From Escherichia coli (GTDB lineage Bacteria > Pseudomonadota > Gammaproteobacteria > Enterobacterales > Enterobacteriaceae), in NCBI RefSeq assembly GCF_001677475.2, contig NZ_CP015229.1: DNA of 64,000 nucleotides. One strand, 5' to 3'. Of the stretch, positions 44,147-64,000 are shown piece by piece. The notes under the pieces are model-generated. The model had not been told where the DNA came from and searched no databases. It was given only the letters and a program-made list of their open reading frames with translations. Positions within the stretch are counted from its first letter, which is position 1. Every line of letters begins with the position of its first letter. The translations under genes and the position numbers were made by a program.

Positions 44147-44262
44147 TCACCTCGCCCCGGTAACGTGCCGGGGCTTTTTCACTTCAGACTTACGTCCATT
44201 GCCAATTTTCATTACCCTAGTGATAATCACATGAATAAATTATTCCGCGCGAGGGTTTTCGG

Positions 44263-45270
44263 GTGAAAAAGCAATGGATTGTTGGCACGGCGCTGCTTAT
44301 GTTGATGACTGGTAATGTCTGGGCAGATGGCGAACCACCAACTGAAAATATCTTAAAAGATCAATTCAAAAAGCAGTATCACGGCATTCTCAAGCTTGAT
44401 GCTATCACCTTAAAAAATCTTGATGCTAAGGGTAATCAGGCCACCTGGTCAGCGGAAGGCGATGTCTCTTCCAATGACGATCTCTATACCTGGGTCGGTC
44501 AGTTGGCAGATTACGAGCTGCTCGAACAGACCTGGACGAAAGATAAACCGGTAAAATTCTCGGCGATGTTAACCAGTAAAGGAACGCCCGCGTCTGGCTG
44601 GTCGGTGAACTTTTACTCTTTTCAGGCGGCAGCCAGCGATCGTGGGCGGGTGGTCGACGATATCAAAACGAATAATAAATATCTGATCGTGAATAGCGAA
44701 GATTTCAATTATCGCTTTAGTCAGCTTGAATCAGCGTTGAATACCCAGAAGAACTCGATTCCTGCGCTGGAAAAGGAAGTGAAAGCGCTTGATAAGCAAA
44801 TGGTGGCGGCGCAGAAAGCAGCGGATGCATATTGGGGAAAAGATGCAAACGGCAAGCAAATGACCCGCGAAGACGCCTTTAAAAAAATTCATCAACAGCG
44901 TGATGAGTTTAATAAACAGAACGATAGCGAGGCGTTTGCGGTTAAATATGACAAAGAGATTTATCAACCGGCGATTGCGGCATGTCATAAACAGAGTGAA
45001 GAGTGTTATGAAGTGCCGATTCAGCAGAAACGAGATTTCGATATCAACGAACAACGGCGACAGACTTTTCTGCAATCACAAAAAATTAGCCGTAAATTGC
45101 AGGATGACTGGGTAACGCTAGAAAAAAGGCAATATCCGTTAACGATGAAAGTTTCGGAAATAAACAGTAAAAAAGTCGCGATTTTGATGAAAATTGACGA
45201 TATCAATCAGGCTAATGAACGCTGGAAAAAAGATACCGAACAACTGCGGCGCAATGGGGTGATTAAGTAA
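44263..45270 (+). CDS. yggM: DUF1202 family protein
   Basis: 335 aa with signal peptide; synteny next to ansB. Confidence 0.85.
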   Translation: MKKQWIVGTALLMLMTGNVWADGEPPTENILKDQFKKQYHGILKLDAITLKNLDAKGNQATWSAEGDVSSNDDLYTWVGQLADYELLEQTWTKDKPVKFSAMLTSKGTPASGWSVNFYSFQAAASDRGRVVDDIKTNNKYLIVNSEDFNYRFSQLESALNTQKNSIPALEKEVKALDKQMVAAQKAADAYWGKDANGKQMTREDAFKKIHQQRDEFNKQNDSEAFAVKYDKEIYQPAIAACHKQSEECYEVPIQQKRDFDINEQRRQTFLQSQKISRKLQDDWVTLEKRQYPLTMKVSEINSKKVAILMKIDDINQANERWKKDTEQLRRNGVIK

Positions 45271-45285: not shown

Positions 45286-45326
45286 TTTGCCGGATAATAT
45301 AAAAGTTATCCGGCAAATTATTTTTT
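45286..45326. terminator. terminator hairpin after yggM
   Basis: GCCGGATAA...TTATCCGGC followed by a T-run. Confidence 0.6.
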
Positions 45327-46046
45327 ACATTAGCCCTAGTAGCTGTGGAATGAACAAGGATATTTGCGGAATGTAAGTGATCATCATCAACGCTACTAGC
45401 AATGCAGCATAAAATGGCAGCAATGGTTTGATTAAATGTTGAATCTTCACACCCGAGATAGAACAACCAACAAATAGCGCACTACCCACCGGCGGTGTTA
45501 ACAGCCCAATACAAAGGTTGGCCACCATCATAATACCGAAATGTACAGGGTCCATTCTCAGCTCTTGTGCAATCGGCAAGAAGATCGGTGTAAAGATTAG
45601 TACAGCCGGTGTCATGTCCATAAAGATGCCGACAATTAATAAGACGATATTAATCAGCAGCAATATGATCAGTGGGTTATCAGAAATCCCCATCAACGCG
45701 TCGCTGATCATATAAGGAATATCAGCATTGGTCATTGCCCAGGACATGCCCACGGAAAAACCGATCAACAGTAATACAATCGAAGTGGTAACAACCGATT
45801 CCAGAATCAGTTTGGGTAAGTCGCGCCATTTTACTTCCCGGTAAATCAGCACCGAGAGAATAAATGTGTAGACAACGGCAATTGCTGACGCTTCAGTTGC
45901 GGTAAAAATGCCGCCCAGAATGCCGCCCATCACAATGAACACCAGAAGCAAACTTGGTAGGGCATCCAGAAACGCTTTACAGGCCTGAGCAAAGGTTGCT
46001 CTTTCTGAAAGTGGGTAACCACGGCGTTTAGCAATAATGGCGCAGA
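45325..46046 (-). pseudogene. TRAP large permease (DctM family), C-terminal fragment
   Basis: Hydrophobic frame running from the IS66 junction at 46046; in-frame continuation (...VVCA|IIAKRRGYPLSERATF...) of the fragment at 13921-14507. Confidence 0.75.
46040..46046. repeat. 7-bp direct repeat (GCGCAGA, reverse complement of TCTGCGC), right copy of the dctM target duplication
   Basis: Matches 14501-14507 in reverse complement; both abut IS66 ends. Confidence 0.6.
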
Positions 46047-46076
46047 GTAAGCGTCAACGGAGCACCGTATTGACGC

Positions 46077-47669
46077 TTATTTATTGGTGAGAACCACGTT
46101 CCATGGCAGGAGTTCGTCAACACGGTTGGAGGGCCATTCCGGCAGTACGCTCAGAATATGGCGCAGATACGCTTCCGGATCGATACCGTTCAGACGGCAG
46201 GTGCCGATCAGCCCGTATAGCAGTGCACCACGCTCGCCACCGTGATCGCTACCGAAGAACACGTAATTTTTCTTTCCAAGACAGACTGCACGAAGCGCTC
46301 TTTCCGCTGTGTTATTGTCCGTCTCCGCCAGTCCGTCATCACTGTAATAACAGAGGGCGTCCCACTGATTCAGTACATAGCTGAACGCTTCGCCCAGTCT
46401 GGATTTTTTCGACAGCGTGCCATTCTTCTCCACCATCCATTCATGCAGCGACGTCAGTAACGCTTTGCTTCGCTGCTGTCTGACTGCAAGACGCTCTGAC
46501 TCTGGTAATCCCCGTATTTCATCCTCGATGGCGTACAGTTCACTGATTCGCTTCAGGGCTTCTTCTGCCGTCGCACTTTTGCTGCTGATGTATACATCGT
46601 GGATTTTTCTCCGGGCATGGGCCCAGCACGCAACTTCTGTCAGCGCACCACCTTCACGTTCTGCACTGAACAGCCTGTCATAACCTGTGAACGCATCCGC
46701 CTGCAGGATACCCCGGAAGGGGCGGAGGTGTTGCTCCGGGTGTTTCCCCTGCCGGTTCGGTGAGTACGCGAACCAGACCGCCGGAGGAGATGACGAACCC
46801 GCATTGCGATCATCCCGGACATACGTCCAGATGCGCCCTGTTTTCGTCTTTTTCAAGCCCGGTGCCAGTACCTTTACCGGTGTGTCGTCAGTGTGAAGCT
46901 TGCGGGTATTCATCACATAACGGTACAGGGCATCATTCAGCGGCATCATTAACTGGCAGCACGCGTCAACCCAGTTGGAGAGTAATGCACGGCTCAGTTC
47001 GACACCCTGTCGGGCAAAGATTTCACTCTGACGATACAGTGGCAGGTGTTCGCAGTATTTTCCCGTTAACACGCGGGCAAGTAATCCGGGGCCCGCGATA
47101 CCACGCTCTATCGGGCGGGACGGCGCCGGTGCTTCAATGATGCAGTCACATTTTGTACAGGCTTTTTTTACCCGTTCTGTGCGGATCACTTTCAGGGCGC
47201 TGCTCACCAGTTCCAGCTGCTCAGTACTGACTTCCCCCAGATAATCCAGCTCGCCGCCACATTCCGGGCAACAACTTTCTTCAGACTCCAGACGGTGTAT
47301 TTCACGGGGAAGGTGTGCCGGTAACGGACGACGATGGCGCGACTGTCGCAACTGGCGGGGAACCTGTGGATCGTCTTCCCGCCCACTGTAACGATCGCTG
47401 TCCTGTTCGCGTTGTTTCAGCAGGGCCTCAGCCTGTTCAACTTCACGACGCAGTTTTTCAGAACGGGTACCGAACAGCATCCGGCGCAGTTTTTCTATCT
47501 GAGCCCGCAGATGTTCTATTTCCCGTTCATCTTCTTCGATCTTTTCTTCGGCACGTGCCAGTGCAGAGCGCAGGAAGGCCTCCGTCTCTTCAACCAGACT
47601 CAGTTGCTGGTCTTTCTGACGGAGCTGGCTTTCCAGTTCTGCAATGCGAATGAGGTATTTCTGACTCAT
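46077..47669 (-). CDS. IS66 family transposase (TnpC)
   Basis: 530-aa translation identical to that of copy 1. Confidence 0.9.
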   Translation of the reverse strand: MSQKYLIRIAELESQLRQKDQQLSLVEETEAFLRSALARAEEKIEEDEREIEHLRAQIEKLRRMLFGTRSEKLRREVEQAEALLKQREQDSDRYSGREDDPQVPRQLRQSRHRRPLPAHLPREIHRLESEESCCPECGGELDYLGEVSTEQLELVSSALKVIRTERVKKACTKCDCIIEAPAPSRPIERGIAGPGLLARVLTGKYCEHLPLYRQSEIFARQGVELSRALLSNWVDACCQLMMPLNDALYRYVMNTRKLHTDDTPVKVLAPGLKKTKTGRIWTYVRDDRNAGSSSPPAVWFAYSPNRQGKHPEQHLRPFRGILQADAFTGYDRLFSAEREGGALTEVACWAHARRKIHDVYISSKSATAEEALKRISELYAIEDEIRGLPESERLAVRQQRSKALLTSLHEWMVEKNGTLSKKSRLGEAFSYVLNQWDALCYYSDDGLAETDNNTAERALRAVCLGKKNYVFFGSDHGGERGALLYGLIGTCRLNGIDPEAYLRHILSVLPEWPSNRVDELLPWNVVLTNK

Positions 47670-47699
47670 GGCCGTTTTTATAATGCGGCCAGGCGTTTT

Positions 47700-48050
47700 T
47701 TACAACATTGTCAGGGCGTTAAGGCGGGATGTTTTTGGCTGACGCCAGTCCAGCTTATCGAGGAGCATTGCCAGTTGCGAGCGGGTAATGGATACCTTAC
47801 CGTCACGCACCGCAGGCCAGATAAACTGGCCTTCCTCCAGGCGTTTGGTGAACAGGCACAGACCATCAGCATCAGCCCAAAGAATTTTAACGGTGTCACC
47901 CCGTCGGCCACGGAAGATAAACAGGTGACCGGAGAAGGGATTAACATTTAACACATGCTGTACCTGTTCACCCAGCCCGTTGAAAGACTTACGCATATCG
48001 GTTATCCCGGCAACGAGCCAGATACGGGTACCGGATGGGAGTGAGATCAT
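47700..48050 (-). CDS. IS66 family accessory protein (orfB/TnpB)
   Basis: Identical translation to copy 1. Confidence 0.85.
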   Translation of the reverse strand: MISLPSGTRIWLVAGITDMRKSFNGLGEQVQHVLNVNPFSGHLFIFRGRRGDTVKILWADADGLCLFTKRLEEGQFIWPAVRDGKVSITRSQLAMLLDKLDWRQPKTSRLNALTML

Positions 48051-48466
48051 CTTCCCCTCCCGGTCAGTTCACGAATCAATACAGTGAGCAGCTCTGGTGA
48101 AGGATTTTCCAGCGTCATGTTACCGTGACGGAACTCCACCTTGCAGGAGCTGGCACTGACAGTAGTCTGAGTGGATAAGGGCGGAGTAAGAGCAGCCATC
48201 GGTTCTTTCGGCTCATCAGAGGTTATCTCTACAGGTAATAATTCAAGGCCTGCATCAGAAGTGGTTGTCACCGGAAGACGCCGTGATATACGCCCTTCGT
48301 TTTGCCAGAGTCTGAGCCATTTGAAAATAACATTATCATTGACGCCATTTTCTCGTGCAATCTGAGCCACACAAGCACCGGGTTGTGATGCCAGTTCAAC
48401 CATACGAAGTTTGAATTCATTCGAATACTTTTTACGAGGTTCTTTTCGCCAGTCCTGTAATTCCAT
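48047..48466 (-). CDS. IS66 family accessory protein (orfA/TnpA)
   Basis: Identical translation to copy 1. Confidence 0.85.
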   Translation of the reverse strand: MELQDWRKEPRKKYSNEFKLRMVELASQPGACVAQIARENGVNDNVIFKWLRLWQNEGRISRRLPVTTTSDAGLELLPVEITSDEPKEPMAALTPPLSTQTTVSASSCKVEFRHGNMTLENPSPELLTVLIRELTGRGR

Positions 48467-48551
48467 ACTTAGATGTCCGTCTGTGTCAGATGGGCGTCTA
48501 AGTTACCAATTCTTGTCTAATGGCTACATACGGCGGTCGGTTTACGCTTAC

Positions 48552-48559
48552 CGCTGGCC
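48552..48559. repeat. 8-bp target-site duplication (CGCTGGCC), second copy
   Basis: Reverse complement of GGCCAGCG at 17013-17020. Confidence 0.8.
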
Positions 48560-48880
48560 TACACGCAGCGGCTTAAGGAAGCCGGATTACTGGCATCAAC
48601 AGGGAGTACTGGTGACTCGTATGACAACGCGATGGCGGAGAGCATCAATGGTCTTTACAAAGCGGAGGTAATACACCGTAAGAGCTGGAAAAACCGGACA
48701 GAAGTGGAACTGGCCACACTAACGTGGGTGGACTGGTATAACAATCGACGATTGCTGGAAAGGCTGGGCCATATTCCTCCGGCAGAAGCAGAAAAAGCTT
48801 ATTATGCTTCCATCGGAAATAATGATCTGGCAGCCTGAGTTCACAGATAAAATACTCTCCAGGAAACCCGGGGCGGTTCA
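48552..48880 (+). mobile_element. IS629 (IS3 family), right 329 bp with the 3' end of orfB and the right terminal repeat
   Basis: Encodes YTQRLKEAGLLASTGSTGDSYDNAMAESINGLYKAEV...; terminal repeat ...CCCGGGGCGGTTCA at 48880. Confidence 0.8.
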
Positions 48881-49682
48881 TTCCGCCGGTGATGGCTGTG
48901 TCAGAAACTGCCATCCCGGAATGGCCACGCAGACCGCCAGCAATGCCGTACAGACACCTGTAACAAACGTTTTCAAAAACGTGAGCGGGGATTTTTGAAG
49001 GAAGAGTGTGGGCTCTGTTTTTGTTTCAGAAACAACATACACCAGACGGGAGTGCGGCAGGGTCTGATGTTCCTGCACATCCGGAGCTTCAAGCCTGAGT
49101 GCCTGCGCCAGTAGCGTTACCGGAGACGATACTTCCCCCTGCACAGGCTGGTTCTCCAGGCGGGTGATATATCCCTTCACCATGGCTTCCGGTAAAGCCA
49201 CTTTACTGCTCTGTTTAAGTTCGTGCCAAGCCTGCGTATTTTCATGGAAGGAGATCACTCAGTGTCTTCAGGAATGTTTCGGTCTGATACAGCAGGGGCA
49301 GGTTGCCACGGTTATCCGGAGGCATGGCCCGGAGCGTTTTTTGCAGACGGTTGAACAGACCGGTAATAATTTCCAGCCGGGAGTGTGTATTCAGCGGCCA
49401 CATCACTGACCAGTGATGCCGGGTCAGCGCAGCAATCAGAGCCAGCCCTTCATTCAGACCACTTAACCCTGTTGTATGCATCCGGGCAATGGTGTACCAG
49501 GATGCCGTCTGTAATTCCACACCATTGTGTTCATACAGACGCAGGCAGAGCGTTTCCACGTAACGCCAGTCCACATCAGGGCGTGCCGGGTGGGTCAGTT
49601 TGCTGATTTCATCGCGCAGGGCAGCATAATCCGGTAATGACCGGGGGTCACCACCGGTTTTCAGTTTCACTTCAGAAGTCAT
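48881..49682 (-). pseudogene. N-terminal part of a TssA/ImpA-like gene (frameshifted, truncated by IS629)
   Basis: ORF 49242-49682 (…GGDPRSLPDYAALRDEISKL…WRYVETLCLRLYEH…, ImpA-N-like) and overlapping out-of-frame ORF 48878-49258 ending inside the IS629 terminus. Confidence 0.45.
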
Positions 49683-50075
49683 CGGCAGATTCAGTGTTTA
49701 GGTATTAAACCATTGTTAATTATAGGGAGAGAGTCAGTGCGATACCGTTACCCAGGAAAGGTATTCCACTGCGCAGATGATTGCCGGTGTCACATCCCAC
49801 CGCCGTTTCAGAACCGGTAACAGCTCATTAAGGTTTCTGATATAACGCTCAGTGAAAACCGGACTGATTACAGGTAATGGTGATATGACAGGTATCGTTG
49901 CCAATATACACGGCTTCCAGAGGTATGAATCTTACATTCCAGTACCAGGAGTACGGCGAGTGGTTCAGATGAAAAAGACGCATCTGAATATCGTTAAATA
50001 ACGGGTTCATGGCGAATTAAATAAACCTGATAATAACAGTATGGGGAAAGTCCGGAATAAAGAAATGGTCCGGTA

Positions 50076-51863
<1,788 letters not shown>

Positions 51864-52055
51864 AAACGCACCTTAATCTGTGAACAAAAAAATAATCACC
51901 ACCGACACCCACGACGTTATATCGTGGGTGTCGTTTTATTCAGAAATAAAAAACAGAATCATTAACATGACCGGAATACTGTGAACCATGCTGCAGGATA
52001 TCTGCAGATATCCCTCCTGTTATATCCGGCCGGAATAAAATCAGAACACTGATTG

Positions 52056-53300
52056 TCAGGCAGCTTCATTTTCCGCGTACTCCAGACTCTGCAGATACTG
52101 CAGCGCCGCCGGATCAGCCACATATTCCACCTGCCCGTGGTGACGCTCCACTTCATTAATGATTCTCTCAAGTTTCACGCGGAAAAATTCTTTACGCAGG
52201 TTAATCCTGTTAATGCGGTATTTTTCCAGACTGTCATGAAGTGTTTTTTCCAGCGCGGGCGCATCATCACAGGAAATCATGGCGTGAACATCAAAATCAA
52301 ACGGAACAGAAGCACCACTTAACTCTTTGACCCTGTCCATGGGTTCCAGCCGTCGGGTCATACCAATTTTAAAGACATCCTCACCAAACGAACCAATATT
52401 CGAAATGATATAAACATGCCCCTGTTTCGTAAGCTGAGCCATGGATTTAGCACGTTCATACTGCGCATGCGCTTCCTGAATTTTCTGTTCCAGCGCCAGG
52501 CGTTGTTTCTCTAACGCCTCCCTGTGAGCCCCTTCTGCTGCACGCAGCGCCTCTTCAATCAGTTTCTGCTGCTCAGCAAGACGCCGTTCTTCCTCTTCCG
52601 CTTCCCGCTGGCGCCGGTCAAGTTCATCCTGACGCTCTTTTTCTTCACGCATCTGACGCTTAAGCTCTGCCTGATATTCCTTTTCTTCCTGCGCTTTTTC
52701 CAGTAATGCCACTTTGTCCAGAAACTGTTGCCTGACACTCTCCCAGTCAGAATTATCTTCCAGGTTAAGAAAGGCTATTTTCTCACTGACAGCAGCGTAA
52801 GCCTCTCTTTCCTTACGAAGCTGATCATATTTGTTTTGCCAGTTATTAATCGTTACACCAGCCAGCAGAGTTTTCGCCTTAAATTTCCAGGCGGAATCAA
52901 CAATCCGTTGCATTGCACGGCTGGCCTTCTGTCTGGCGGTATGAAACTCCTCACGACGTCTGGCAAGTTGCTTCTTTTCCTGTCGTATTCCCCGGGCTAT
53001 CGCGGCATTGACAGTTTCATTAAAATCCCGCTCCCTCTGAACCAGCTCCGAAACGGCCTGCTCAAAGGCTGCTGTTTTCTTTCTGAGTCTCCGGTAAATA
53101 AAAAAACGAAGTAAAATTGCAAATACAGTAAGCAAACCAAAAAACAAACCAATAATACCTGCCGGATTCGATACTGCATCAATAAAGCGCTCATTAAGAT
53201 TTATCAGCGCCCTGACCGCCACATAAATCCCCCAGAGAATAACGCAAATTAAAATCAGGACAAATCCCGCTGCATTATCATCTTTTTTTCTTCCTGCCAT
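52056..53300 (-). CDS. membrane-anchored coiled-coil protein with C-terminal T5orf172/GIY-YIG-like domain (DUF4041-like architecture)
   Basis: 414 aa; N-terminal hydrophobic helices, long E/R/Q-rich coiled coil, C-terminal GHVYIISNIGSFGEDVFKIGMTRRLEPMDRVKEL. Confidence 0.6.
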   Translation of the reverse strand: MAGRKKDDNAAGFVLILICVILWGIYVAVRALINLNERFIDAVSNPAGIIGLFFGLLTVFAILLRFFIYRRLRKKTAAFEQAVSELVQRERDFNETVNAAIARGIRQEKKQLARRREEFHTARQKASRAMQRIVDSAWKFKAKTLLAGVTINNWQNKYDQLRKEREAYAAVSEKIAFLNLEDNSDWESVRQQFLDKVALLEKAQEEKEYQAELKRQMREEKERQDELDRRQREAEEEERRLAEQQKLIEEALRAAEGAHREALEKQRLALEQKIQEAHAQYERAKSMAQLTKQGHVYIISNIGSFGEDVFKIGMTRRLEPMDRVKELSGASVPFDFDVHAMISCDDAPALEKTLHDSLEKYRINRINLRKEFFRVKLERIINEVERHHGQVEYVADPAALQYLQSLEYAENEAA

Positions 53301-53455
53301 GACTTTCCTTTATTTTCCTTCTCAGTAACTGAATATTTATGATTAACGCCCTCCGGAAATATTTATACCCGGAAGGTTGTCCGGCTTTATGATGCCCGCC
53401 ACTACAGAATTAACTGCAGGCTGAGCACAGATTCCTCTGCTATTTCAGTGTCAGA

Positions 53456-53857
53456 TTAATACTGATTACCGGAACAAATGGGCAGATGCGTAAATCCGGG
53501 TTTGCTGGCCATATAAAGCGGCGCACAGGTGGGTTTACGGGGTTCAGTGACCGGTACAGCCTCATTTTTCTCAGCCACCGACGGTTGTGACACCTTCCGG
53601 GCAGCCGCTGATTTTTTCTTCTGAACCGGCTTAGTGGCGACTGGTGATTTCACCTGACGTCTGGCGGGTGCCACGCCATAACCGGAACAAAAGCGCTTCG
53701 ACTGACTCAGACTTCCGTCATTGCAGACAAAACGTCCGTCCGACGTGCAGTGTGAAATACCACCTTTAGCACCCGAGCAAGGCTTTCTTCCCCGTGCTGC
53801 ATCTGCCTGAACAGAAAATAAAATACCTGCTAACAGAAGATATATAAATTTATTCAA
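53456..53857 (-). CDS. small secreted Cys-containing hypothetical protein
   Basis: 133 aa with signal peptide MNKFIYLLLAGILFSVQADA and several Cys; immediately upstream of the DUF4041-like gene on the same strand. Confidence 0.4.
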   Translation of the reverse strand: MNKFIYLLLAGILFSVQADAARGRKPCSGAKGGISHCTSDGRFVCNDGSLSQSKRFCSGYGVAPARRQVKSPVATKPVQKKKSAAARKVSQPSVAEKNEAVPVTEPRKPTCAPLYMASKPGFTHLPICSGNQY

Positions 53858-55056
53858 TCGAATATCCCCGAATAATCATTTAGCATTTTTAACTATTAAA
53901 TTTACAGAGTTTCGGTCAATTCCTGCATCTTCACCACCTGGCTCAACTTTCTCCTTGTTCGTTGCACCAGGCCAGTTCCTTACCCGGATCAGGTTATTTG
54001 TTTTCGTAAGTATTGCCTCCGCTCAGCAACCTGAAGAGATAAAAGCAATAATAATGCAGAAATCAGCATCCGGGATAAAAAAGACCGATGGTTCCAGTAT
54101 GAGTTTTGCGCTTCAGATACTACGCACCTGCAACATGCTTTTTAGCAAAATAAAAACCTTTTGTTCATTGTATATCAACAATTGTCCAGCAACCTCCTGT
54201 CGATGCCTCCCACCATTTTTGCAATGGCACGCTACCGCCCTCCCGGAATTTACCTGCGTCAACAGGCACCAGAGCCCTGAGCAAAAAATAAACCATTTTC
54301 GACTGATTTAAATTTGACCATTATGGAATAATGATCAACAAAACATTAATATTACAGATATATCGAACAATACAACAGCAGCATACTGCTTATTATTCTG
54401 ACAATGATCACAAAACCAAAACACCGGTCAGCCCACTGATTTTGTTGCTGAACCCGGTATATCCACCGGTTTTCCACAGCCCGGGAGGAAGAGAGCATCA
54501 TAAGGCGTGATAGTGCCTCCGAACTCCACGGCTCCCTGAAAGCCCCCACCGGACTGCCATCCGGTATCAGCAGAAACTTTTCCGCAAATTAATAAAGAAA
54601 GAGAAAAGACAATAATAAGTAAAATATCAATTACAGCATCCTGACGCACATCCACTCCCCTCTGAGACTCCTTCACCTGTATTATTCACTCGTGGTGAAA
54701 TTTCTTTTATTTTTCTGTAAACCTCACTGAAGTCATCTTCCACCATTACATGACCTTCAATTCCCCTGATATGAAGTTCACAAAAAATACCTTTCTGAAC
54801 GACGAAACTGATATCTTTTATATTCACCAGAAGATTTCGCCCCTGCCTGCTGACAAAGTGAATAAACACGTCTGCCACTCAACACAAAAACATGAACAAA
54901 AGAATAAAAAACAAAAAAAGTCGAAGTTAAGAAGAAAAACTCTGCCGGAGTCTGAAAAATGCGATGTGGCACATCATTTGTCAGAAATAAAATGAAATTA
55001 CTTAAATGTATTTAATTTTATTTTTCAGGAGTGACTTACTGATTACACAGCTGGCG

Positions 55057-55815
55057 TTACCTGTACTCACAACAAAATGTATCCACTTTTTCCGGTCTGC
55101 CGAAATAAAACCCCTGCAGATAATCCACCCCCATAGAGCACAGACAGTTCACCTGCGCCTGTGTTTCCACACCTTCTGCCACCGTATCAATACCCAGCTT
55201 TCCTGCCAGCCCGACAATACTTTCCACGATATGCCGGGATGTCTTTTCACTCAGAATGTCCTGTGTGAAGCTTCTGTCCATTTTTATATAACTGACCGGG
55301 AAGTGCTTCAGGTACGACAGTACGGAACATCCGGTTCCGAAATCATCCAGCGCAAATGCCACTCCGGCATCACTCAGCCGGCTCAGTTTCTCTTCGGTCT
55401 GTCTGTCCATGTTAAACGGCTGCTGCTCCGTCAGCTCCAGAACCAGATGTATGCTGTCATGCCCTGCCAGCGCCAGACACATCTGAGTGAACTCACGCTC
55501 AGCCAGCAGGGCCGGCGTCACGTTCACGGCAAGCCGGAAACCACGCGGCAGCATGGCTTTAACCTCCGAAAGCCCTGCCACCGCACGGTTCAGGATTTTT
55601 TCCGTCACAGGCAACAACAGACCGGCAGATTCCACCCGGTTAATGAAATATGCCGGCGGAAGGATTTCTCCCGTCGGCATATGCCAGCGAACCAGAAGCT
55701 CTGCACCGGACATAGTAAGGTTGGATGCAGAAACCACCGGCTGGAGATACGGTTCAAACTCCCCGTTACTGAGCGCACGCATCAGTCTGTCTGCGGATAC
55801 AAAATCACTGTCCAT
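55057..55815 (-). CDS. EAL-domain protein (putative c-di-GMP phosphodiesterase)
   Basis: 252 aa with ELTE (EAL-type) and DDFGTG motifs. Confidence 0.7.
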   Translation of the reverse strand: MDSDFVSADRLMRALSNGEFEPYLQPVVSASNLTMSGAELLVRWHMPTGEILPPAYFINRVESAGLLLPVTEKILNRAVAGLSEVKAMLPRGFRLAVNVTPALLAEREFTQMCLALAGHDSIHLVLELTEQQPFNMDRQTEEKLSRLSDAGVAFALDDFGTGCSVLSYLKHFPVSYIKMDRSFTQDILSEKTSRHIVESIVGLAGKLGIDTVAEGVETQAQVNCLCSMGVDYLQGFYFGRPEKVDTFCCEYR

Positions 55816-56386
55816 ACTGTCGGTCTTCCATTTTATGAACCTCCCGGTCCAGCCCGGTCATCAACAGCATCCTGAAATCCCTGACGCCCACATTCTCTGC
55901 CAGCCGGGCATAATGCCAGTACAGCCCCCGTTCACTCTGTTTCAGATTCAGGGGACGGTCTCTTCCTCTCTCAGAAAGACGCTTCAGTGCCTGTCGTTGT
56001 CCGGACGTCAGGCGGAATTTACCGGTACGGGCTGTCTTTCTGTTCAGTGCCATGCGGACAGTTCTTTCCAGGCACGACAGCGACATGCATCCGCTGTACA
56101 CCGGGCAGATATTTCGCAACACCTTCAGCATTTCCAGCCTTTCCGGTACCAGAACCAGCATTTCACCGGGCATTTCTGCCCTCAGTTCACGTATCCAGGA
56201 CAGATGACGCCCCCAGCCCGTAACAGGCTCTGCACTCAGCGCCACAATAATCAGGTCCCAGCCATGCCGGGCACAGGGATACCCCGGAGGTACACGGTAA
56301 ACGTTGTGGCCCTGTGCGGATAACAGGTGCCACAGCCCTGTCAGCTCATACCAGCAGGTTCCGGTCAGAAGGATTTTTTGCCTCAT
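55805..56386 (-). CDS. putative regulatory protein downstream of the fimbrial genes
   Basis: ORF with ATG at 56386; helix-turn-helix-like C-terminal region; family not determined. Confidence 0.35.
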   Translation of the reverse strand: MRQKILLTGTCWYELTGLWHLLSAQGHNVYRVPPGYPCARHGWDLIIVALSAEPVTGWGRHLSWIRELRAEMPGEMLVLVPERLEMLKVLRNICPVYSGCMSLSCLERTVRMALNRKTARTGKFRLTSGQRQALKRLSERGRDRPLNLKQSERGLYWHYARLAENVGVRDFRMLLMTGLDREVHKMEDRQYGQ

Positions 56387-56519
56387 ACTTACGACCTTCA
56401 CCACATCAGTACCGCACAGAACATCACCAGTGTCAGTACCAGACATGCCATACAGGTTGCTGCCACACAGACACCAACCACCCACCACATCGGTATTAAC
56501 ACTTTTCGTTGCCGGGCCA

Positions 56520-57323
56520 TCAGAAATACCCCACCACCGGCGTCAGATTACCCTGCCAGCGTTTTACCGGCTCCTCAGCACCGGGGAAATTCACCCGCAC
56601 ATCACTCAGGGATGTCACCCAGGCACCGGCAATATGCTGGCTGCCATTCTCCTGTGACAACAGCGACTCAGCGCCTGAAATAAACACATCAGGACGCGCG
56701 GTTAACCCGGCATAGTCCGGGGTCCATTCATAGCCGTTCACCTGCCATAACTGGTGTTTTACCTGTTTTTCGGCCCCCGGCGTCACCTCTCCGCTGACCA
56801 CACTCCATCCATGCCCGGCAGTAATGTTGTCCTGCCATACCAGCAAATGGCGAACGGTGAACGTAATTTCCCCGTAACGCACCTGCCCCCGGGCAAGCTC
56901 TCCCCGGGCCTCAATACGGGGGGATGACGGTGTCACCTGAAGCAATGTCACTGACGGCTGCAGTCCCGGACGGGCGGTTGTCAGCGATGTGGTATGTCCG
57001 CCCAGAATATAAAAAACCTGCCCAGCCCGGCCTTCACTGACCATGCCACCTTTACCCGTTGTCAGACCAGCCTGCACGGCGTCTGGTGTACTCATCCGTA
57101 CAGAGTGGGGCTGCCACTGCCAGGAAACCTCAGGGACATACAGCGTGCCGCTGAATTCCGTCACCCCCACGGCCATCCCCTCCTGCCAGTGTCCCGGTGG
57201 AATAATCAGGGGCTGCGCCAGCACACTGGCTGAAGTCAGAAAAAACAGAGCCGGAAACATACCGGACTTCAGACGATGAATAATATTCAGCACCGGACCC
57301 TCCTCCTGCTTACTGGTACTCAA
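56520..57323 (-). CDS. fimbrial subunit/adhesin-like protein (paralogue 4)
   Basis: 267 aa; secreted; one of four tandem ~265-aa genes in a chaperone-usher cluster. Confidence 0.5.
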   Translation of the reverse strand: MSTSKQEEGPVLNIIHRLKSGMFPALFFLTSASVLAQPLIIPPGHWQEGMAVGVTEFSGTLYVPEVSWQWQPHSVRMSTPDAVQAGLTTGKGGMVSEGRAGQVFYILGGHTTSLTTARPGLQPSVTLLQVTPSSPRIEARGELARGQVRYGEITFTVRHLLVWQDNITAGHGWSVVSGEVTPGAEKQVKHQLWQVNGYEWTPDYAGLTARPDVFISGAESLLSQENGSQHIAGAWVTSLSDVRVNFPGAEEPVKRWQGNLTPVVGYF

Positions 57324-58098
57324 TACTTACCGGCAGTGACACCCGCCAGCGTTCCGGCATCGCGCCGTTCAGACGTAATTCAGCACTTCCTGCCACAGTC
57401 TGTGCACCATACGCACCTTCAATCTGGCGCAGGGAGGCATCACTGAAATGACTCACTCCCGAATAACCACTGACTGTCATTGTCTGCAGCCAGCCGGGGC
57501 CTTCGCCACTGAACATTTTCTGCAGAACACCCGGAATATCAGAAGCTTTCATGGCCGAGCTTTCACCAGGCAGGCCATTTGCATTCAGGTCGTCATACAC
57601 GCCGTCATACACCGGCTGCCCGTCCTTCACATGGCGCAACACCCCTGCAGTCTGCATTCTGAAAACAAATGTGCCTGCCCGGGCGTTATTATCTCCGGTG
57701 ACAGGCAGCGTCACCTCCGCCACGCCTGGTGCTGTCCATTCAAGCGAAAATCCCTCAGTACCCTTTCCGTAACTGACCCGGGGAGAAAGCCCCTCACGTC
57801 CTGCCGGTGTGGTCAGGGTGGTTTTTCCCAGTAAAACAGTCATCGCCGGTAGTGGAACCGGCACTCCCCCACCGTCACGAACACCGCGGCTCTGTTTAAC
57901 CTCCAGACCTTCATTTCCCTGCCCGACTTTCCACACCCACGGGTTACGGATGCTGGTCACCGGGCCTTCCAGCTTAAGCTCTCCGCTGAAATCTTCTCCC
58001 GGCGTGTTCCAGGCAAGTACACAGGAAGGCAGGAGGCTGGCAGCAAACAGAAACAACGTCACCTTTTTCATTTCTCTTCTCTCCTTATATCCCTGCAA
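57310..58098 (-). CDS. fimbrial subunit/adhesin-like protein (paralogue 3)
   Basis: 262 aa with signal peptide MKKVTLFLFAASLLPSCVLA; C-terminus ...VSIEYQ typical of pilin donor strands. Confidence 0.55.
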   Translation of the reverse strand: MQGYKERREMKKVTLFLFAASLLPSCVLAWNTPGEDFSGELKLEGPVTSIRNPWVWKVGQGNEGLEVKQSRGVRDGGGVPVPLPAMTVLLGKTTLTTPAGREGLSPRVSYGKGTEGFSLEWTAPGVAEVTLPVTGDNNARAGTFVFRMQTAGVLRHVKDGQPVYDGVYDDLNANGLPGESSAMKASDIPGVLQKMFSGEGPGWLQTMTVSGYSGVSHFSDASLRQIEGAYGAQTVAGSAELRLNGAMPERWRVSLPVSIEYQ

Positions 58099-58101
58099 CC
58101 A

Positions 58102-58905
58102 TCACTGTACCGTGACTGTCACATTCAGCCCCGCCTGCCATGCCGCAGGTGTACCCTCTGCCGGCAGACGCAGCTCAAAATCCGACACCGCAGAGGCATA
58201 TGCCGCAGCCAGATTCATCACCCGACCATCAGCCAGTATCCCCTGACTGATAACCTGTCCGTTATCCACCGCATTCATGCCATTTCCAAAATTCTGATTC
58301 ATCAGTAATAAGGCAGACAGACGGTTCTTCAGCCCCTGTGGCAGACTTCCCGGCTGTACATCCGTCACACTTTGTCCACTTACCAGCGACATACCGGCCG
58401 GTACGGATACCCCGTCTTCCTGTCGACCGGCACTGACTGCCATCCCCTGATTCAGGGTAAAAGAAAGCTGTCCCGACACATTTCCCGTTTCCGGGTCACG
58501 CACCGGGACAGAGGCGCGGAAACGTTGCGCCGTAGTGCCACTGCCTTCCTTTACGGTAAAAGGCTGTCCGTTACTGCTGAAGGTAATAAATGGCGTGAAC
58601 CCGGGACCACCGCGCTCTGCCACCTCATGCAGATGCCCCTCCAGAAACGGCAGAGCCCCTTTATCACGCAAATTAAAAACCAGTTGCCCGTTCTCTGTAC
58701 GTGCATCAGCAGTATCCACTGCCCAGGTCTGGTCCGGTGAACTTATCTGCCAGGTCCATTTGGGGGCTTCATCCGTGACAAAGCCGTTAAACTGAATTTC
58801 GCCGCCATCAAGAATATCTGCATGTGGTGCTGCCGAATAAAACAGGGTCACCGAAATAATGGCAGAAAGAAGGGATTTATAATGATGCGTTATTTTCATC
58901 GACAT
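58102..58905 (-). CDS. fimbrial subunit/adhesin-like protein (paralogue 2)
   Basis: 267 aa; C-terminus ...LNVTVTVQ. Confidence 0.55.
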
Positions 58906-59103
58906 TCACTCTGTTTTATCCGGAGGATACAGCCCCCCTCAAAGTAATTTGGTCAAATATAAAACAGCACAAAACCGACATGCGTCACAAAATATCAAAA
59001 TATCTGCTCCGCATGCCGATTCTGTGTATTCTGAACTCTAAAAACAGAGTCCAGAAAATTTAATCAACAGCAAACGAGGTATTTACTGTCAACGATTACT
59101 GAA

Positions 59104-59895
59104 TTACATGTAGGTAACAGTAATCGGCAGAGAAGCTGTCCAAGTTGTAGCATTAGACAGTGCGTTGCTAAGCTTAATATTAATAGATTGACCAGACTTA
59201 ATTCCTGAAGCATATAAACCAGAATAGGAATAATTGTTGCGATCAAAAGTATTTTCATCGTAGGCTCCGTTTCCGTCCGGGCCAGGAACAAAAGTCTCAT
59301 CAACACCGGGGAAAAGCGTAGACGCCAGATCAAGTGCTTCCTGAGTATCTTGTACTATATTATTTTCTGATTTACCCACACCACCATAAAAGGCCATCCC
59401 TGCTTTAGACGCATACATTGAGGATGAAACCCCTTCTACACCATATCCTTCATCTGCACTCCAGGATTTAATACCGCTGGAGGAAATTTTTGTGGTTAAA
59501 GTGCCGATAGTTTGAGAACCAGACTTAACCGATAGCGTCAAGTCAGCTGACCCATTAACAAAAGTATCCAGATCAACAGCTCCGTCATAACTAATTTGAG
59601 GCGTAATACCAGCCTGACCAGCAAACATCTTATGCTCTGTCGGGCGAATACCTAATATACTAATTGGGCTGGTCACATTAATTGTTACATCTTTTTGCCC
59701 GGCTTCAAGGGTTGCATCCAGATCTGTTACGTTATTACCGACAGCAACTGACCACGGATTCCCAGTCTGAGATGGAGGTGTCAGCTGACCGCCCATTTCA
59801 AAAGAACCATTAAAATCACCAGGAGTCCAGGCAAATACTGAACCAGACACAACGGCAGAAGTAGCCACTGCCAGTGCAATCAGAGTCTTTTTCAT
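59104..59895 (-). CDS. fimbrial subunit/adhesin-like protein (paralogue 1)
   Basis: 263 aa with signal peptide MKKTLIALAVATSAVVSGSVFA; C-terminus ...LPITVTYM. Confidence 0.55.
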   Translation of the reverse strand: MKKTLIALAVATSAVVSGSVFAWTPGDFNGSFEMGGQLTPPSQTGNPWSVAVGNNVTDLDATLEAGQKDVTINVTSPISILGIRPTEHKMFAGQAGITPQISYDGAVDLDTFVNGSADLTLSVKSGSQTIGTLTTKISSSGIKSWSADEGYGVEGVSSSMYASKAGMAFYGGVGKSENNIVQDTQEALDLASTLFPGVDETFVPGPDGNGAYDENTFDRNNYSYSGLYASGIKSGQSINIKLSNALSNATTWTASLPITVTYM

Positions 59896-60143
59896 AAAAA
59901 GAAATTCCTTTCAGATTTACAAAAAAACAAAAAATATAATTTATGCTGTATCAGCAACCCCTTTATCGGAATTACCGCAAAACCATCCCCTGCGGATTCA
60001 TTTAAATAACCGCACTTCATTAAACACATTGTTTAACTCAGAATGGTTTTACGTTATTCCCGTTAAAAAACGGTAAATCCCTTTACCAATATGACCCGTT
60101 CCGGAGTTACGGATGTATTGCATCTGTTGTCGGAGATGAATTC

Positions 60144-60635
60144 TCAGTCTTCCACCTGCAGCGCTATCTGCAGATTTCCCCGGTAACTGACCGGAACTTC
60201 CAGTTCTGCCGGTGCATCCGTTCTTAACTCAACCTGCTTCTGTGCTTCCGGCACGGTTATCACCACATCCTCACCCTGCTGTCTGGCACTGAGTGTCACT
60301 CTCTTTCCGTCAACCATCAGGGCCGTCTTCAGGGTGATGCGGGCTTCCCCGTTATCCGGCAGAGTCTGCTTCACCGTGATATACGTCAGGCCACCTGATG
60401 CCGCCCTGGACTCTGCGCTGCGGATGGTCAGGCTGCCGGGAAGAGGCGTCGTGTCTCCACTCCGGTACAGCACCGGGTCTGTCGGTGTACGGGTCACCTT
60501 CACCACACTGTTACCCACCACCTGACCGTTCACTACTCCCAGATACTGTGTTTTCTCGCTGTATTCAGCGGACAGTGCAGACTGAATACTGAACGCACTT
60601 AAAACAAGGGCGGCTGCCATCATTGTTTTCTTCAT
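60144..60635 (-). CDS. small secreted protein within the fimbrial cluster (possible minor subunit)
   Basis: 163 aa with signal peptide MKKTMMAAALVLSAFSIQSALSA. Confidence 0.45.
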   Translation of the reverse strand: MKKTMMAAALVLSAFSIQSALSAEYSEKTQYLGVVNGQVVGNSVVKVTRTPTDPVLYRSGDTTPLPGSLTIRSAESRAASGGLTYITVKQTLPDNGEARITLKTALMVDGKRVTLSARQQGEDVVITVPEAQKQVELRTDAPAELEVPVSYRGNLQIALQVED

Positions 60636-60669
60636 TTATTACCCCTCTGTTCCGTGTTCCGGAGGGCGG

Positions 60670-61545
60670 TTATTTTTTATCTGCTTTATCAGGCAAATTA
60701 ACCGACGAATCAGATACCTTCTCCCCGGAAGACGCTGACGTTTTTTTCTGGTTAATTGTCCAGGTCTGCAGTTCACCGTAATCATTCAGAGAATCCACTT
60801 TCACCACATTTCCCTTCACCTGCACTTCATCACCCGGCATGAACATCAGCAGTTTCTGTGCTGTCTCATTATCCGTGGCAATTTTCTTCCCGTTTCCGTC
60901 CAGCAGGCTGCCAATCGCAAAAATGTACGGCGTGGTGTTCACCAGCATAGTCCTGCCATCCGGGCGGCTCTGCAGGCTGAGTCCTTCCTCTGCCCCCTTG
61001 CGACCTTCAAGCAGTGCCTTCGGGCGATAGAACAGTTTCAGCTTCGTGCGCAGCGCCACCGCAATACCACTACCCTCCAGAGCCGGCGGAATATCCTGCA
61101 GGTTCAGCCAGTACACCGACTCCCTGTCCTTCGGCAGATGATCCGAGGCCATGATGATACGCAGTGTCTGCTGACCGTTCGGCTTCACCCTGAAGAAGGA
61201 CGGCGTCACCACAAAGGTCGGACGGGTGTCCTTCTCCACGATATTGTCCACCCAGGCCTGTCCACCAAAGGTACGTTCCTTGTCATTGTTGGTGACCGTG
61301 ATGGTCAGTGCATCCTTGTCTCCGCGAAAGATATAGCGGGTCTGGTCTGCTGCCAGGGAAGCCATCGCACTCTGACAGGTCATCATCAGCGCCAGGGTCA
61401 TCCCCAGCGTTTTTGTTACCCGGTTAGTGAAAAACTTCGTTACTGCACTACGCTTATTCACACGTAATCTCCTGTAGTTTCTCAGTATCCTGCAGTTTCT
61501 CCGCAGGTATCCGGCACCGCCCCAGAGTGATATCCCCCGGCGCAT
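60670..61545 (-). CDS. periplasmic pilus chaperone (PapD-like)
   Basis: Two-domain chaperone-like sequence; true start probably the internal ATG giving MTLALMMTCQSAMA signal peptide (about 61401). Confidence 0.75.
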   Translation of the reverse strand: MRRGISLWGGAGYLRRNCRILRNYRRLRVNKRSAVTKFFTNRVTKTLGMTLALMMTCQSAMASLAADQTRYIFRGDKDALTITVTNNDKERTFGGQAWVDNIVEKDTRPTFVVTPSFFRVKPNGQQTLRIIMASDHLPKDRESVYWLNLQDIPPALEGSGIAVALRTKLKLFYRPKALLEGRKGAEEGLSLQSRPDGRTMLVNTTPYIFAIGSLLDGNGKKIATDNETAQKLLMFMPGDEVQVKGNVVKVDSLNDYGELQTWTINQKKTSASSGEKVSDSSVNLPDKADKK

Positions 61546-63931
61546 CCACCGTGTTAATCATCAGTACGCCGTTGTTGGCCACAAAGCCCAGCGGCGTGTT
61601 CTTACTGTCACGTGCCCAGGTTCCGCCTGACACAAACTCACCGTCACGCTGCTTCACCTGCAGCAGGTAACGCTTAACTTTCAGGGCATCAAACGGCATC
61701 CACACCACCGCCCTGTCCGTCGGCACCACCTTCTGACTGGTGTTCGTCAGTTCGGTGCTCAGCGGCAGTGTGCCCGCATCAATCGTCACCGTGTTCCAGT
61801 CATAGCTGTTCAGCGGTACCACCAGGTTGCCGTCACTGTCAGTCTGTCCGTCACCGGATGTCACTTTCACTCCGGGCGTATCCTTCACGTTCACCACGGC
61901 CACGGTATCCCCGGTCGTGCGGCTGAACATAATGTCCTTCGCCGCCGGAACGGCCAGTACCGAACCACTGACCGAGACAGAACCACTGGTTCCGCCGGAC
62001 TGAGAGTGGTTCAGGGCACCACTCAGATAAGCCCGGTCACCGCTGTACGACGCGTTCAGATAACTGCTGGCACCGCCATCACTGTCACGACCACCGCCCA
62101 GACCATAACTGAAACGGTCATTCAGCGAGCCGGACACACCAGTGCTGAAGCCTGTGCCACCGTCTTTACTCGTACTCACCGACGTACTGCTGCTGTAGCG
62201 ACGGTCAAACAGCGTGAAAGGTACCGATACTGACGCCGATGCAGACCAGTTGTTTTCCCCCCGGGTGTTCCGTGAACCGGACCAGCCCAGGTTAAGACTG
62301 ACACCCTTAATCTGTGTGCTCAGGGTGCCGGTAATCCCCGTGTCCTTACCGTTGTCATCGCTGTACCAGTAACTCCCGGTCATGGATGCGGGGTAATAAC
62401 TCCGCTGCCAGCCGGACACCGACAGACTGAACAGACCACCCACCGGCTGACTGACACCGGCATTCCATTCCTCCTTCGTCCGGCGACCATGATTTGACTG
62501 CGACCACAACTCTGTCGGGTCAAAGGAGGACATGTCCTCATATTCCTCACTCTGCCGTGACCAGCTCACCCGCAGTCCGGTGTTCGTCATCTCCAGTTGT
62601 TTACTCCAGGATAACTGCACCTTATTTCCGCTGCGGCTGCCGTCACGGTATTTCGCCGTGGCATAAGCGCCGTCAGCAGACACCGCCCCCAGGTAACTCA
62701 GCCCCAGAACCGCCCCGGCGCTGACGCCCTGCCAGTCCTGGTTAAACACCCCGCCGGTGCGCAGTGTCAGCCCGTCCAGACCGTAACCGTATGACGCCGC
62801 AAACACACCGCCTTTCAGGTCACTGTCATCGTCAGGCAAACCGGCCGCCACACTGAACTCGTGCTGCCCGGGGCTTAACTGCCCGGCCATCACCGACAGC
62901 GGGAAGTTCTGCACATGTTCCCGGCCATCCTCGCCGGTCACCGTCATCTTCACATCCCCACTGGTGTACAGCGGCACATCCGTGATGGCGAACGGACCTG
63001 CCGGCACCATCTCCGAATGCAGCAACCGTCCGTTCTGCGTCAGTGTCACCCTCGACGGCCCGTCCGCAATGCCGCTGAAAACCGGGGTATACCCCAGATT
63101 GCCCGGCTTCATGCTGTTGTTCCGGCTCAGCGACACGCCGTACGTTCCCGTGCTGCCCAGCAGACTGTCCCCGGTGGATGTTTTCCCGACAGCCAGGTCC
63201 GCACTCAGTGCGCGGATGGCCCGGGTGGCCGTGAACATGTTTATCGTGGTGGAGTTATCCCCGCTGTCACCACCGCTGGCCGTGGCAGAAGAACTCACCA
63301 CCCAGCGCCCGATATTGGCTTTCAGGTCTGCTGAGCCAAAGGCCGAGGTGTTATTACGGCCGGTGTTGGCGTTCGCGTTATAGTTCACGCGAAATGCACT
63401 GGTCCCGTAATCCCAGTCCACATTCTCCGGCATCTTCACCAGCCCTTTCTGGGGAATGGACAGCGCCAGACTCTGGGTGGAAACATCAAAATCCACCTTC
63501 ACCGACGGGGCTTTTGTCAGCACATAGCACTGTCGTGTGGCGTCATACCCCTCACGAAAGTAATCCGCACTGACGTAAATCCCGGCCTTCGTCAGCCATG
63601 CCTCTGTCAGACACAGTTCATTACTGTCCTGTGGTGTCACATCCAGTATCTGTTTCCCGGCCTCCTTCCCGTTCAGGGACAGGTCAACCAGATAACGCCC
63701 CGGCGCATAGCTGCCGTTCAGGGCTGCCCAGACTTCCGGATTAACCCCGGCACCACCCTGGATAAAGGACATATCCAGTTTTTCACCTGCAACACCTGTG
63801 GCGCTGGCGAAAGCAGCTGATACGGCAAGCGCAAGTGTGGCCCGACGGAAAAATACGGACGAAACCTGTTTTGTGATTGTTTTTACTTCTGCACGCACAA
63901 TCTTTACTCTGTTACTGATACGTGACCACAA
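61454..63931 (-). CDS. fimbrial usher protein
   Basis: 825 aa; large beta-barrel-type protein with C-terminal Cys pair (…GRCRIPAEK…ITCE); track start is a non-ATG codon, true start uncertain. Confidence 0.85.
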   Translation of the reverse strand: MWSRISNRVKIVRAEVKTITKQVSSVFFRRATLALAVSAAFASATGVAGEKLDMSFIQGGAGVNPEVWAALNGSYAPGRYLVDLSLNGKEAGKQILDVTPQDSNELCLTEAWLTKAGIYVSADYFREGYDATRQCYVLTKAPSVKVDFDVSTQSLALSIPQKGLVKMPENVDWDYGTSAFRVNYNANANTGRNNTSAFGSADLKANIGRWVVSSSATASGGDSGDNSTTINMFTATRAIRALSADLAVGKTSTGDSLLGSTGTYGVSLSRNNSMKPGNLGYTPVFSGIADGPSRVTLTQNGRLLHSEMVPAGPFAITDVPLYTSGDVKMTVTGEDGREHVQNFPLSVMAGQLSPGQHEFSVAAGLPDDDSDLKGGVFAASYGYGLDGLTLRTGGVFNQDWQGVSAGAVLGLSYLGAVSADGAYATAKYRDGSRSGNKVQLSWSKQLEMTNTGLRVSWSRQSEEYEDMSSFDPTELWSQSNHGRRTKEEWNAGVSQPVGGLFSLSVSGWQRSYYPASMTGSYWYSDDNGKDTGITGTLSTQIKGVSLNLGWSGSRNTRGENNWSASASVSVPFTLFDRRYSSSTSVSTSKDGGTGFSTGVSGSLNDRFSYGLGGGRDSDGGASSYLNASYSGDRAYLSGALNHSQSGGTSGSVSVSGSVLAVPAAKDIMFSRTTGDTVAVVNVKDTPGVKVTSGDGQTDSDGNLVVPLNSYDWNTVTIDAGTLPLSTELTNTSQKVVPTDRAVVWMPFDALKVKRYLLQVKQRDGEFVSGGTWARDSKNTPLGFVANNGVLMINTVDAPGDITLGRCRIPAEKLQDTEKLQEITCE

Positions 63932-64000
63932 AGGTCAGCGCCCCCGTGTATTCCCCCGCCTTCACGTCAGCCGGAAACACTGGCTGCGCACGAAAACGGA
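63911..64000 (-). CDS. fimbrial major subunit, 3' end only (gene continues beyond the window)
   Basis: Minus-strand frame ends ...GEYTGALTFVVTYQ*, typical of a type-1-like pilin C-terminus. Confidence 0.5.

Follow-up and report, generated by a model that had tools for sequence, protein, structure and literature searches.

A K88/F4-family fimbrial cluster with a rare major-subunit allele and distal KlfK- and EAL-family genes in a chromosomal island of Escherichia coli

Identity and gene order of the fimbrial cluster

A 64,000-nucleotide stretch of the Escherichia coli chromosome (contig NZ_CP015229.1, assembly GCF_001677475.2; hereafter the window) carries, at positions 55057-64000 on the minus strand, a cluster that we read from its genes alone, with a probability of roughly 85%, as an intact K88/F4-family (kappa clade, Klf-like) chaperone-usher operon extended by distal signalling genes. 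The run of open reading frames (ORFs) consists of the 3' end of faeC, the usher, the chaperone, FaeF, four subunits, a KlfK-family protein (K), and an EAL-domain protein, and all the minus-strand ORFs of the initial annotation were found where it had placed them. The fae order C-D-E-F-G-H-I-J was matched by the ORF map, the domain matches, collinear K88 plasmid DNA, and the RefSeq annotation, in which homologous loci bear the names faeD, faeE, faeF, faeH, faeI, and faeJ. The K88 plasmid exhibited 89% DNA identity to the cluster over 63998-59788 and 58931-56396. Pfam matches to Usher/PapC_N/PapC_C, PapD_N, and Fimbrial_K88 bore out the earlier description of the locus as a chaperone-usher fimbrial cluster. 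From the usher to the EAL protein, all genes were full length and, with the exception of the swapped major subunit, their products were 92-99% identical to the counterparts in other strains.

The 9 kb cluster was matched by megablast in 163 of 5426 complete E. coli genomes, with a coverage of at least 80% in 69 of them, and 175 of the 203 matching places in these genomes were plasmid-borne. Matches were also obtained in 388 plasmids from Escherichia, Salmonella, Shigella, Edwardsiella, and Citrobacter. The variant described here exists in at least one other sample, since a contig from a second sample (L009) was 98% identical over 6.2 kb. In the fae system, FaeC is the tip subunit, FaeD the usher, FaeE the chaperone, FaeF and FaeH minor shaft subunits, and FaeG the adhesive major subunit, while FaeI and FaeJ are of undefined role (PMC3174951). 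Descriptions of K88 and Klf already include this architecture, swapped major-subunit alleles, and a mosaic of guanine-cytosine (GC) content, so that the locus adds little as a fimbrial operon; less ordinary are its rare adhesin allele and its two poorly studied distal signalling genes. The features are as follows (aa, amino acids; E, expect value).

63912-64000, minus strand: faeC-like minor (tip) subunit, 3' end only; frame AGEYTGALTFVVTYQ followed by a stop codon, read directly
61454-63898, minus strand: faeD-like outer-membrane usher, 814 aa; Pfam Usher E 5.5e-95, PapC_N, PapC_C
60670-61461, minus strand: faeE-like periplasmic chaperone; Pfam PapD_N E 4.6e-31
60144-60635, minus strand: faeF-like minor subunit, 163 aa; Pfam DUF5462 E 2.3e-67
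59104-59895, minus strand: major subunit/adhesin at the faeG/klfG position, 263 aa; Pfam Fimbrial_K88 E 8.5e-54, 183 bits
58932-59787, minus strand: exchanged cassette comprising the major-subunit gene (mature part) and nearly all of the G-H spacer; delimited by homology breaks
58906-59103, minus strand: structured spacer 3' of the major-subunit gene with three hairpins; RNA folding
58102-58905, minus strand: faeH-like minor subunit, 265-267 aa; Pfam Fimbrial_K88 E 6.4e-77
57310-58071, minus strand: faeI-like minor subunit, 253 aa from the ATG; Pfam Fimbrial_K88 E 2.2e-76
56520-57293, minus strand: faeJ-like accessory subunit, 257 aa; 90.3% identity to K88 FaeJ
55805-56386, minus strand: KlfK-family protein, 193 aa, putative regulator; receiver-like domain and helical C-terminal domain
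55057-55815, minus strand: stand-alone EAL-domain protein, 252 aa; Pfam EAL E 1.4e-64, 218 bits
54428-54676, minus strand: remnant of a further F4-type subunit gene; 82-aa ORF with a signal peptide and DTGWQSGGGFQGAVEFGGTITP

At the edge of the window, the frame of the faeC-like gene (ending in TFVVTYQ) stops at 63912-63914, and the rest of the gene lies past the window end. This partial gene had been taken for the 3' end of the major pilin; it occupies the faeC position, that of the minor tip subunit, and it is the first of the four large subunit genes that encodes the major subunit. In L009, the gene at the faeC position encodes a product of 180 aa with a Pfam K88_fimbrial_pA match, and both in L009 and in E. 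coli A41 genes for PapB-type and FaeA/PapI-type regulators are situated upstream of faeC. The longest ORF of the usher begins at 63931 (825 aa), but the start at 63898, which gives 814 aa, is likelier, as in homologous gene calls. By NCBIfam model score the usher was classified in the PefC/AfrB/FaeD family, the PefC/AfrB-family model NF011760 reaching 1211.7 bits (cut-off 752) and the runner-up model 190.7 bits, and it was 96.6% identical to the annotated FaeD of A41. Likewise, the longest chaperone ORF begins at 61545, with a likelier start at 61461, 8 nt before the usher stop; the same 8-nt overlap of usher and chaperone was present in the L009 gene calls. The chaperone showed 95.8% identity to K88 FaeE, and the 163-aa protein 89% to K88 FaeF and 99% to A41 FaeF.

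The major-subunit cassette and the four large subunits

The product at the faeG position aligned over its full length with the sequence of the FaeG crystal structure 2j6g (E 1.2e-8) and shared only 29% identity with the proteins encoded at that position in K88, A41, and the Salmonella plasmid pESI. Its best match among 72,556 plasmids did not exceed 46% identity, and among 5.8 billion proteins its one exact match was a cluster that stems from one assembled read set, followed by matches at 79% and then at 61-67%. The gene had a GC content of 43.4% (31.8% at third codon positions), and the other cluster genes 53-58%. The cluster had been described as more GC-rich than its surroundings; this held for the whole (54.0% versus 42.5% in the adjacent 2 kb) and failed for the major-subunit gene, so that the composition is a mosaic. 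For comparison, the island at 46000-55056 had 49.1% and the window 50.0%.

The difference was confined to an AT-rich cassette of 856 bp and 43% GC. Homology to the K88 plasmid and to A41 ended at 59788, past the signal peptide and about 14 mature residues, and restarted at 58931, 26 nt before faeH, with the same boundaries against both; megablast covered 90% of the cluster in two pieces. Salmonella Klf clusters also carry interchanging klfG alleles, with 42% GC versus 61% for the remainder (PMC5560535). The swapped-allele pattern is therefore known from Klf, and it is this major-subunit allele that is new or rare. The spacer 3' of the gene folded into RNA with a minimum free energy of -79.3 kcal/mol (z -8.3), and none of 200 shuffled sequences folded as well. 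Hairpins of unrelated sequence were found at the same position after the major subunit in A41, K88, and pESI, which suggests a conserved attenuator or mRNA-stabilising role that would travel with each allele cassette.

The three large subunits that follow correspond individually to K88 proteins. The faeH-like protein was 90.6% identical to K88 FaeH, and the faeI-like one, whose longest ORF begins at 58098, was 87% identical to K88 FaeI. The longest ORF of the faeJ-like gene begins at 57323; its product gave a weak Fimbrial_K88 match (E 5e-4, 20 bits, under the 26.2 cut-off), in contrast to 183-259 bits for the other three. All four large subunits carry signal peptides and measure 253-267 aa, and pairwise BLASTP chained them at 20-25% identity (G-I E 7e-11, H-I 1e-3, H-J 2e-3). 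Pairwise alignment and profile search of the four ORFs, which the initial annotation had proposed, thus revealed a mutual similarity that is weak but real, and both this similarity and a fimbrial fold are supported by the BLASTP chain and the Fimbrial_K88 matches. As far as sequence comparison allows, the four are ancient paralogues, a major adhesive subunit accompanied by FaeH, FaeI, and FaeJ homologues, and not four tip adhesins. Four large subunits in tandem had been regarded as unusual; they are the defining faeG-H-I-J layout of K88/F4 (PMC3174951), and since the gene order is that of the published fae operon, four consecutive genes of about 265 aa are a hallmark of the family and no oddity.

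The distal signalling genes and the genomic setting

The product of the last gene, 252 aa long, is an EAL domain and nothing else, and the start of the gene overlaps the K gene by 11 nt. Its nearest solved relative by sequence was the EAL domain of YahA/PdeL (E 8.5e-53). In this alignment, ELLVR, N, ELTE, DDFGTG, K-x-D, EGVE, and QG were all kept, and because all catalytic motifs are retained, the protein is predicted to be an active cyclic di-GMP (c-di-GMP) phosphodiesterase. The initial annotation was thus right in placing an EAL-domain protein at the operon end, and the active site of this protein is intact. Between faeJ and the EAL stop no terminator-like site was found except one weak match inside the EAL gene; in the promoter and terminator scans, matches were no more frequent than in shuffled sequence. 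In the literature collection searched, we found no paper that ties K88/fae operons to an EAL gene, and a literature match for "EAL" in a paper on cryptic clades proved to be the unrelated toxin gene ealA and was rejected. Elsewhere, the sfa fimbrial cluster encodes SfaY, a phosphodiesterase with a stand-alone EAL domain (PMC6385356), the EAL protein STM0551 is linked to the Salmonella fim cluster (PMC3487979), MrkJ is encoded beside mrk (PMC3161979), and FimK and Fim2K are further EAL proteins at chaperone-usher clusters (PMC9487511, PMC3419637). A c-di-GMP-linked control of the fimbriae, as first suggested for this locus, is consequently reasonable, yet not new as a principle.

The K ORF is open to 56488 (227 aa), and part of this N-terminal extension is conserved in homologues; the likeliest start is the ATG at 56386, with GAAGG 8 nt upstream, and the conserved core begins KILLTGTCWYELTGL. 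Neither the single sequence nor a 42-sequence profile matched Pfam, NCBIfam, or Protein Data Bank sequences. All 108 homologues, from Escherichia, Salmonella, Shigella, Edwardsiella, and Citrobacter, are annotated as "hypothetical protein". A HMMER profile scan of 1.84 billion representatives yielded 111 relatives, none of which links to a known family, and none of the 20 distant relatives that were searched had a Pfam domain. The AlphaFold model, built from the family alignment, reached a predicted local distance difference test score (pLDDT) of 85.6 and a predicted template modelling (TM) score of 0.80; in it the N-terminus is confidently modelled as a CheY-like receiver fold, and the full-length Foldseek matches were NarL/FixJ-type regulators. 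The label "putative regulator", given to K at the outset, is plausible by its predicted fold. In the family consensus DLIIVALSAEP, a near-invariant Ala stands at the place of the phospho-acceptor Asp, and the stretch after strand 1, ILLTGTC, lacks the acidic pair (both placed by eye). Lacking both of these features, K would be a pseudo-receiver.

The C-terminal part is harder to assign. No Pfam GerE match was obtained in 62 family members, and the C-terminal 78 residues modelled alone had a pLDDT of 73, with best TM-scores of 0.43-0.50 (GerE, QscR, VqmA, SdiA), each at a probability below 0.3. When the K C-terminus was aligned by hhalign with 13 Pfam-validated GerE domains, the probability was 48% and the pairwise E 1.8e-4, with LTSGQRQALKRL...SERGLYWHYARLAENVGV of K paired in register with LTKREREVFELL...SEKTVRNHISNAMQKLGV of the GerE domains, and distant family members showed a clearer helix-turn-helix (HTH)-like sequence. 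We read this part as a probable divergent LuxR-type DNA-binding domain.

The K homologue in pESI, of 196 aa and 41% identity, is located after klfI and is klfK. More distant homologues, with 26-55% identity, were observed on IncF plasmids (L004 8998-9570, L005 9001-9666, L007 5317-5877), where one is situated by Longus type IV pilus genes, one 3' of a pef-like usher-chaperone-DsbA cluster, and one by a GerE-family gene; no EAL gene adjoins any of the three. Another family member, the 207-aa protein P0100 of Salmonella enterica, is a chimera: about 87 residues at its start match K at 97% identity, in the N-terminal extension and the receiver-like part, and the remainder is an AraC-type HTH (PF12833, PF00165). 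P0100 looks like a product of recombination or fusion.

The remnant at 54428-54676 has a counterpart of 119 aa in A41 that matched Pfam Fimbrial_K88 (27.7 bits, E 2.2e-6, profile positions 9-75), and homology with A41 extended to 54422. Since the remnant lies directly 3' of the EAL gene, the latter once preceded another subunit gene. Past faeJ, K88 plasmids (e.g., NC_017639.1; L002 11339-11462) share 124 bp with the cluster (56396-56519) and then diverge. The last 93 bp of this GT-rich stretch showed 97.8% identity, versus about 89% for the genes, and additional constraint may act here. Many E. coli chromosomes and plasmids have the ten-gene form that includes the K and EAL genes. Such gene comparisons suggest that the K88 operon of the textbooks arose by truncation of a longer unit.

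The locus is chromosomal and lies in an IS66-flanked island that begins past yggM, at about 45.3 kb, at an IS66. The core genes from speC to ansB and yggM (34000-45270) were at most 98.4% identical to complete E. coli genomes. A pheV-island setting was considered and rejected, as tRNA-Phe (33391-33466) and the island lie some 12 kb apart, with the core genes from speC to yggM in between. In the region 45325-53857, a truncated transporter gene of the DctM type is followed by an IS66 (46077-48466) and by a type VI secretion fragment (ImpA_N). The region further contained a helicase of the NERD/UvrD type (50076-51863), a protein matching T5orf172/MUG113 (52056-53300), and a Cys-rich secreted protein of 133 aa without Pfam match (53456-53857); an AT-rich stretch and the fimbrial cluster come next.

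Proposed function, alternative readings, and comparison with known systems

By inference from the fae literature, the FaeE homologue would take up subunits in the periplasm and the FaeD homologue would build thin flexible fibres, with the FaeC homologue at the tip, the FaeG-position subunit forming the bulk of the fibre, the FaeF and FaeH homologues as minor components, and the FaeI and FaeJ homologues as accessory subunits of undefined role. The polymerised major subunit would bind the receptor; because the AT-rich cassette is exchanged between otherwise conserved operons, the fibre would have a different receptor specificity and antigenicity. The hairpins 3' of the major-subunit gene probably raise its expression above that of the downstream genes. 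K would not be phosphorylated in the usual way and probably has a divergent LuxR-type DNA-binding end. If SfaY, STM0551, and MrkJ are taken as models, the EAL enzyme would lower c-di-GMP when the operon is on, and K would cross-regulate other genes or the EAL enzyme; the pair most likely links production of the fimbriae with a lowered c-di-GMP level and with the cross-regulation of further surface structures.

Several observations weigh against an intact F4-type operon with a distal signalling pair. The faeC gene and the PapB/FaeA-type regulator genes upstream of it are outside the window and present only in related contigs, and the subunit remnant past the EAL gene means that, historically, the cluster did not strictly end with the latter. 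The K C-terminus had no significant fold or Pfam match, its HTH assignment being backed by hhalign only, at a probability of 48%. Divergent K homologues occur without an adjacent EAL gene, some of them apart from fae subunit genes, on IncF plasmids, so that the pairing of K and EAL is not obligatory. Finally, a klfA mutant of Salmonella was tested for klfD transcription, only klfL and klfB effects were reported, and a klfK mutant was not included (PMC5560535).

One alternative, close to the initial annotation's diversified tip adhesins, would have the four genes of about 265 aa as recently diversified paralogues with several binding specificities. All four are in or near Pfam Fimbrial_K88, alike in size, and provided with signal peptides, but at 20-25% identity they are ancient paralogues, three of them have their own K88 counterparts in FaeH, FaeI, and FaeJ (87-91%), and the variation between loci is confined to the first gene. 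Moreover, the F4 adhesin is the major subunit FaeG, and inactivating FaeH, FaeI, or FaeJ leaves receptor binding unchanged (PMC3174951), which together with the orthology makes this alternative barely tenable. It is also quite improbable that the cluster, once horizontally acquired, is now a relic, silent or in decay and devoid of function. The island does hold an IS66, gene fragments (the truncated DctM gene and ImpA_N), and the subunit-gene remnant. Many chaperone-usher operons are cryptic in the laboratory, and such cryptic operons are common enough to lend this reading some support. Yet the genes from usher to EAL are full length and 92-99% identical elsewhere, apart from the swapped major subunit; the same variant recurred in a second sample at 98% identity, and the EAL protein has kept its catalytic residues.

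The role of K leaves more room for disagreement. K could be a pseudo-receiver adaptor that controls the co-translated EAL enzyme or another partner and is no transcription factor, which agrees with the confident receiver fold devoid of phospho-acceptor Asp and acidic pocket, with a C-terminus that had no significant DNA-binding fold match and in which, within this subfamily, a loop containing Pro stands in place of the HTH scaffold helix, and with the 11-nt overlap of the K and EAL genes, which suggests coupled synthesis. However, hhalign placed the K C-terminus in register with GerE domains (E 1.8e-4, 48%), the HTH-like sequence of distant members is clearer, the full-length Foldseek matches were of NarL/FixJ type, and many family members lack a neighbouring EAL gene; we consider the adaptor possible, if rather unlikely. 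A further, speculative proposal, and one that we would not expect to hold, is that K and the overlapping EAL protein constitute a two-part PdeL-like switch on separate chains, ancestral to F4-type operons and lost from classical K88 plasmids, which would tie the fimbria to c-di-GMP, motility, and biofilm. If this two-chain switch were real, it would establish phosphorylation-independent, receiver-like regulators at adhesin clusters as a new family, whose distant members adjoin pef-like and Longus pilus genes. For the F4-type operon with distal signalling genes, which we prefer, the rare allele (29% identity to FaeG) implies a different receptor specificity in an E. coli lineage outside the complete-genome set. 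Dozens of E. coli genomes and plasmids share the conserved distal K-EAL pair, which is uncharacterised; if the pair links F4-type fimbriation to c-di-GMP, the textbook K88 operon would be the truncated version of a longer ancestral unit.

When compared to known systems, the locus resembled the K88 (F4) operon faeA-J of porcine enterotoxigenic E. coli (ETEC) in its order faeC-D-E-F-G-H-I-J, in a DNA identity of about 89% outside the cassette, in FaeE, F, H, I, and J proteins that were 87-96% identical, and in an usher of the PefC/AfrB family. In contrast, the major subunits share 29% identity, K88 plasmids are without the K and EAL genes, and the K88 copy is carried on an ETEC plasmid while the copy described here is in a chromosomal island. 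The Klf cluster of Salmonella Infantis pESI likewise has a low-GC, exchangeable major-subunit allele between conserved flanks (PMC5560535) and a KlfK homologue directly past the faeI/faeJ region. It differs in its truncated faeJ, in shared proteins that are 67-88% identical, and in having KlfK followed by the FaeA/PapI-type KlfA and no EAL gene. KlfJ, KlfK, and KlfA are listed as of unknown function (PMC5560535); KlfA was considered as an EAL protein and rejected, being of FaeA/PapI type, with no EAL gene present there in pESI.

Uncharacterised F4-family loci of E. coli genomes and IncF plasmids, among them those on the A41 chromosome (NZ_CP028735.1) and on plasmid NZ_CP054565.1, have the same ten-gene layout, including a hypothetical protein (K) and the EAL gene, and their proteins other than the major subunit were 92-99% identical to those of the locus. 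For K and EAL on the plasmid, the DNA identity was 98.3%. These loci differ from it in carrying another major-subunit allele (29% identity for A41) and in another insertion site with other flanks. Regarding SfaY of S fimbriae, STM0551 of Salmonella type 1 fimbriae, MrkJ of Klebsiella type 3 fimbriae, and FimK/Fim2K, the likeness consists in the placement of the EAL gene, and the effect of these proteins is a lower c-di-GMP level, a change in fimbrial expression, or both (PMC6385356, PMC3487979, PMC3161979, PMC9487511, PMC3419637). The partner of the EAL protein sets the locus apart from them, being an orphan receiver-like protein here and a MarR-like protein (SfaX), a PilZ protein (MrkH), or a fused HTH elsewhere.

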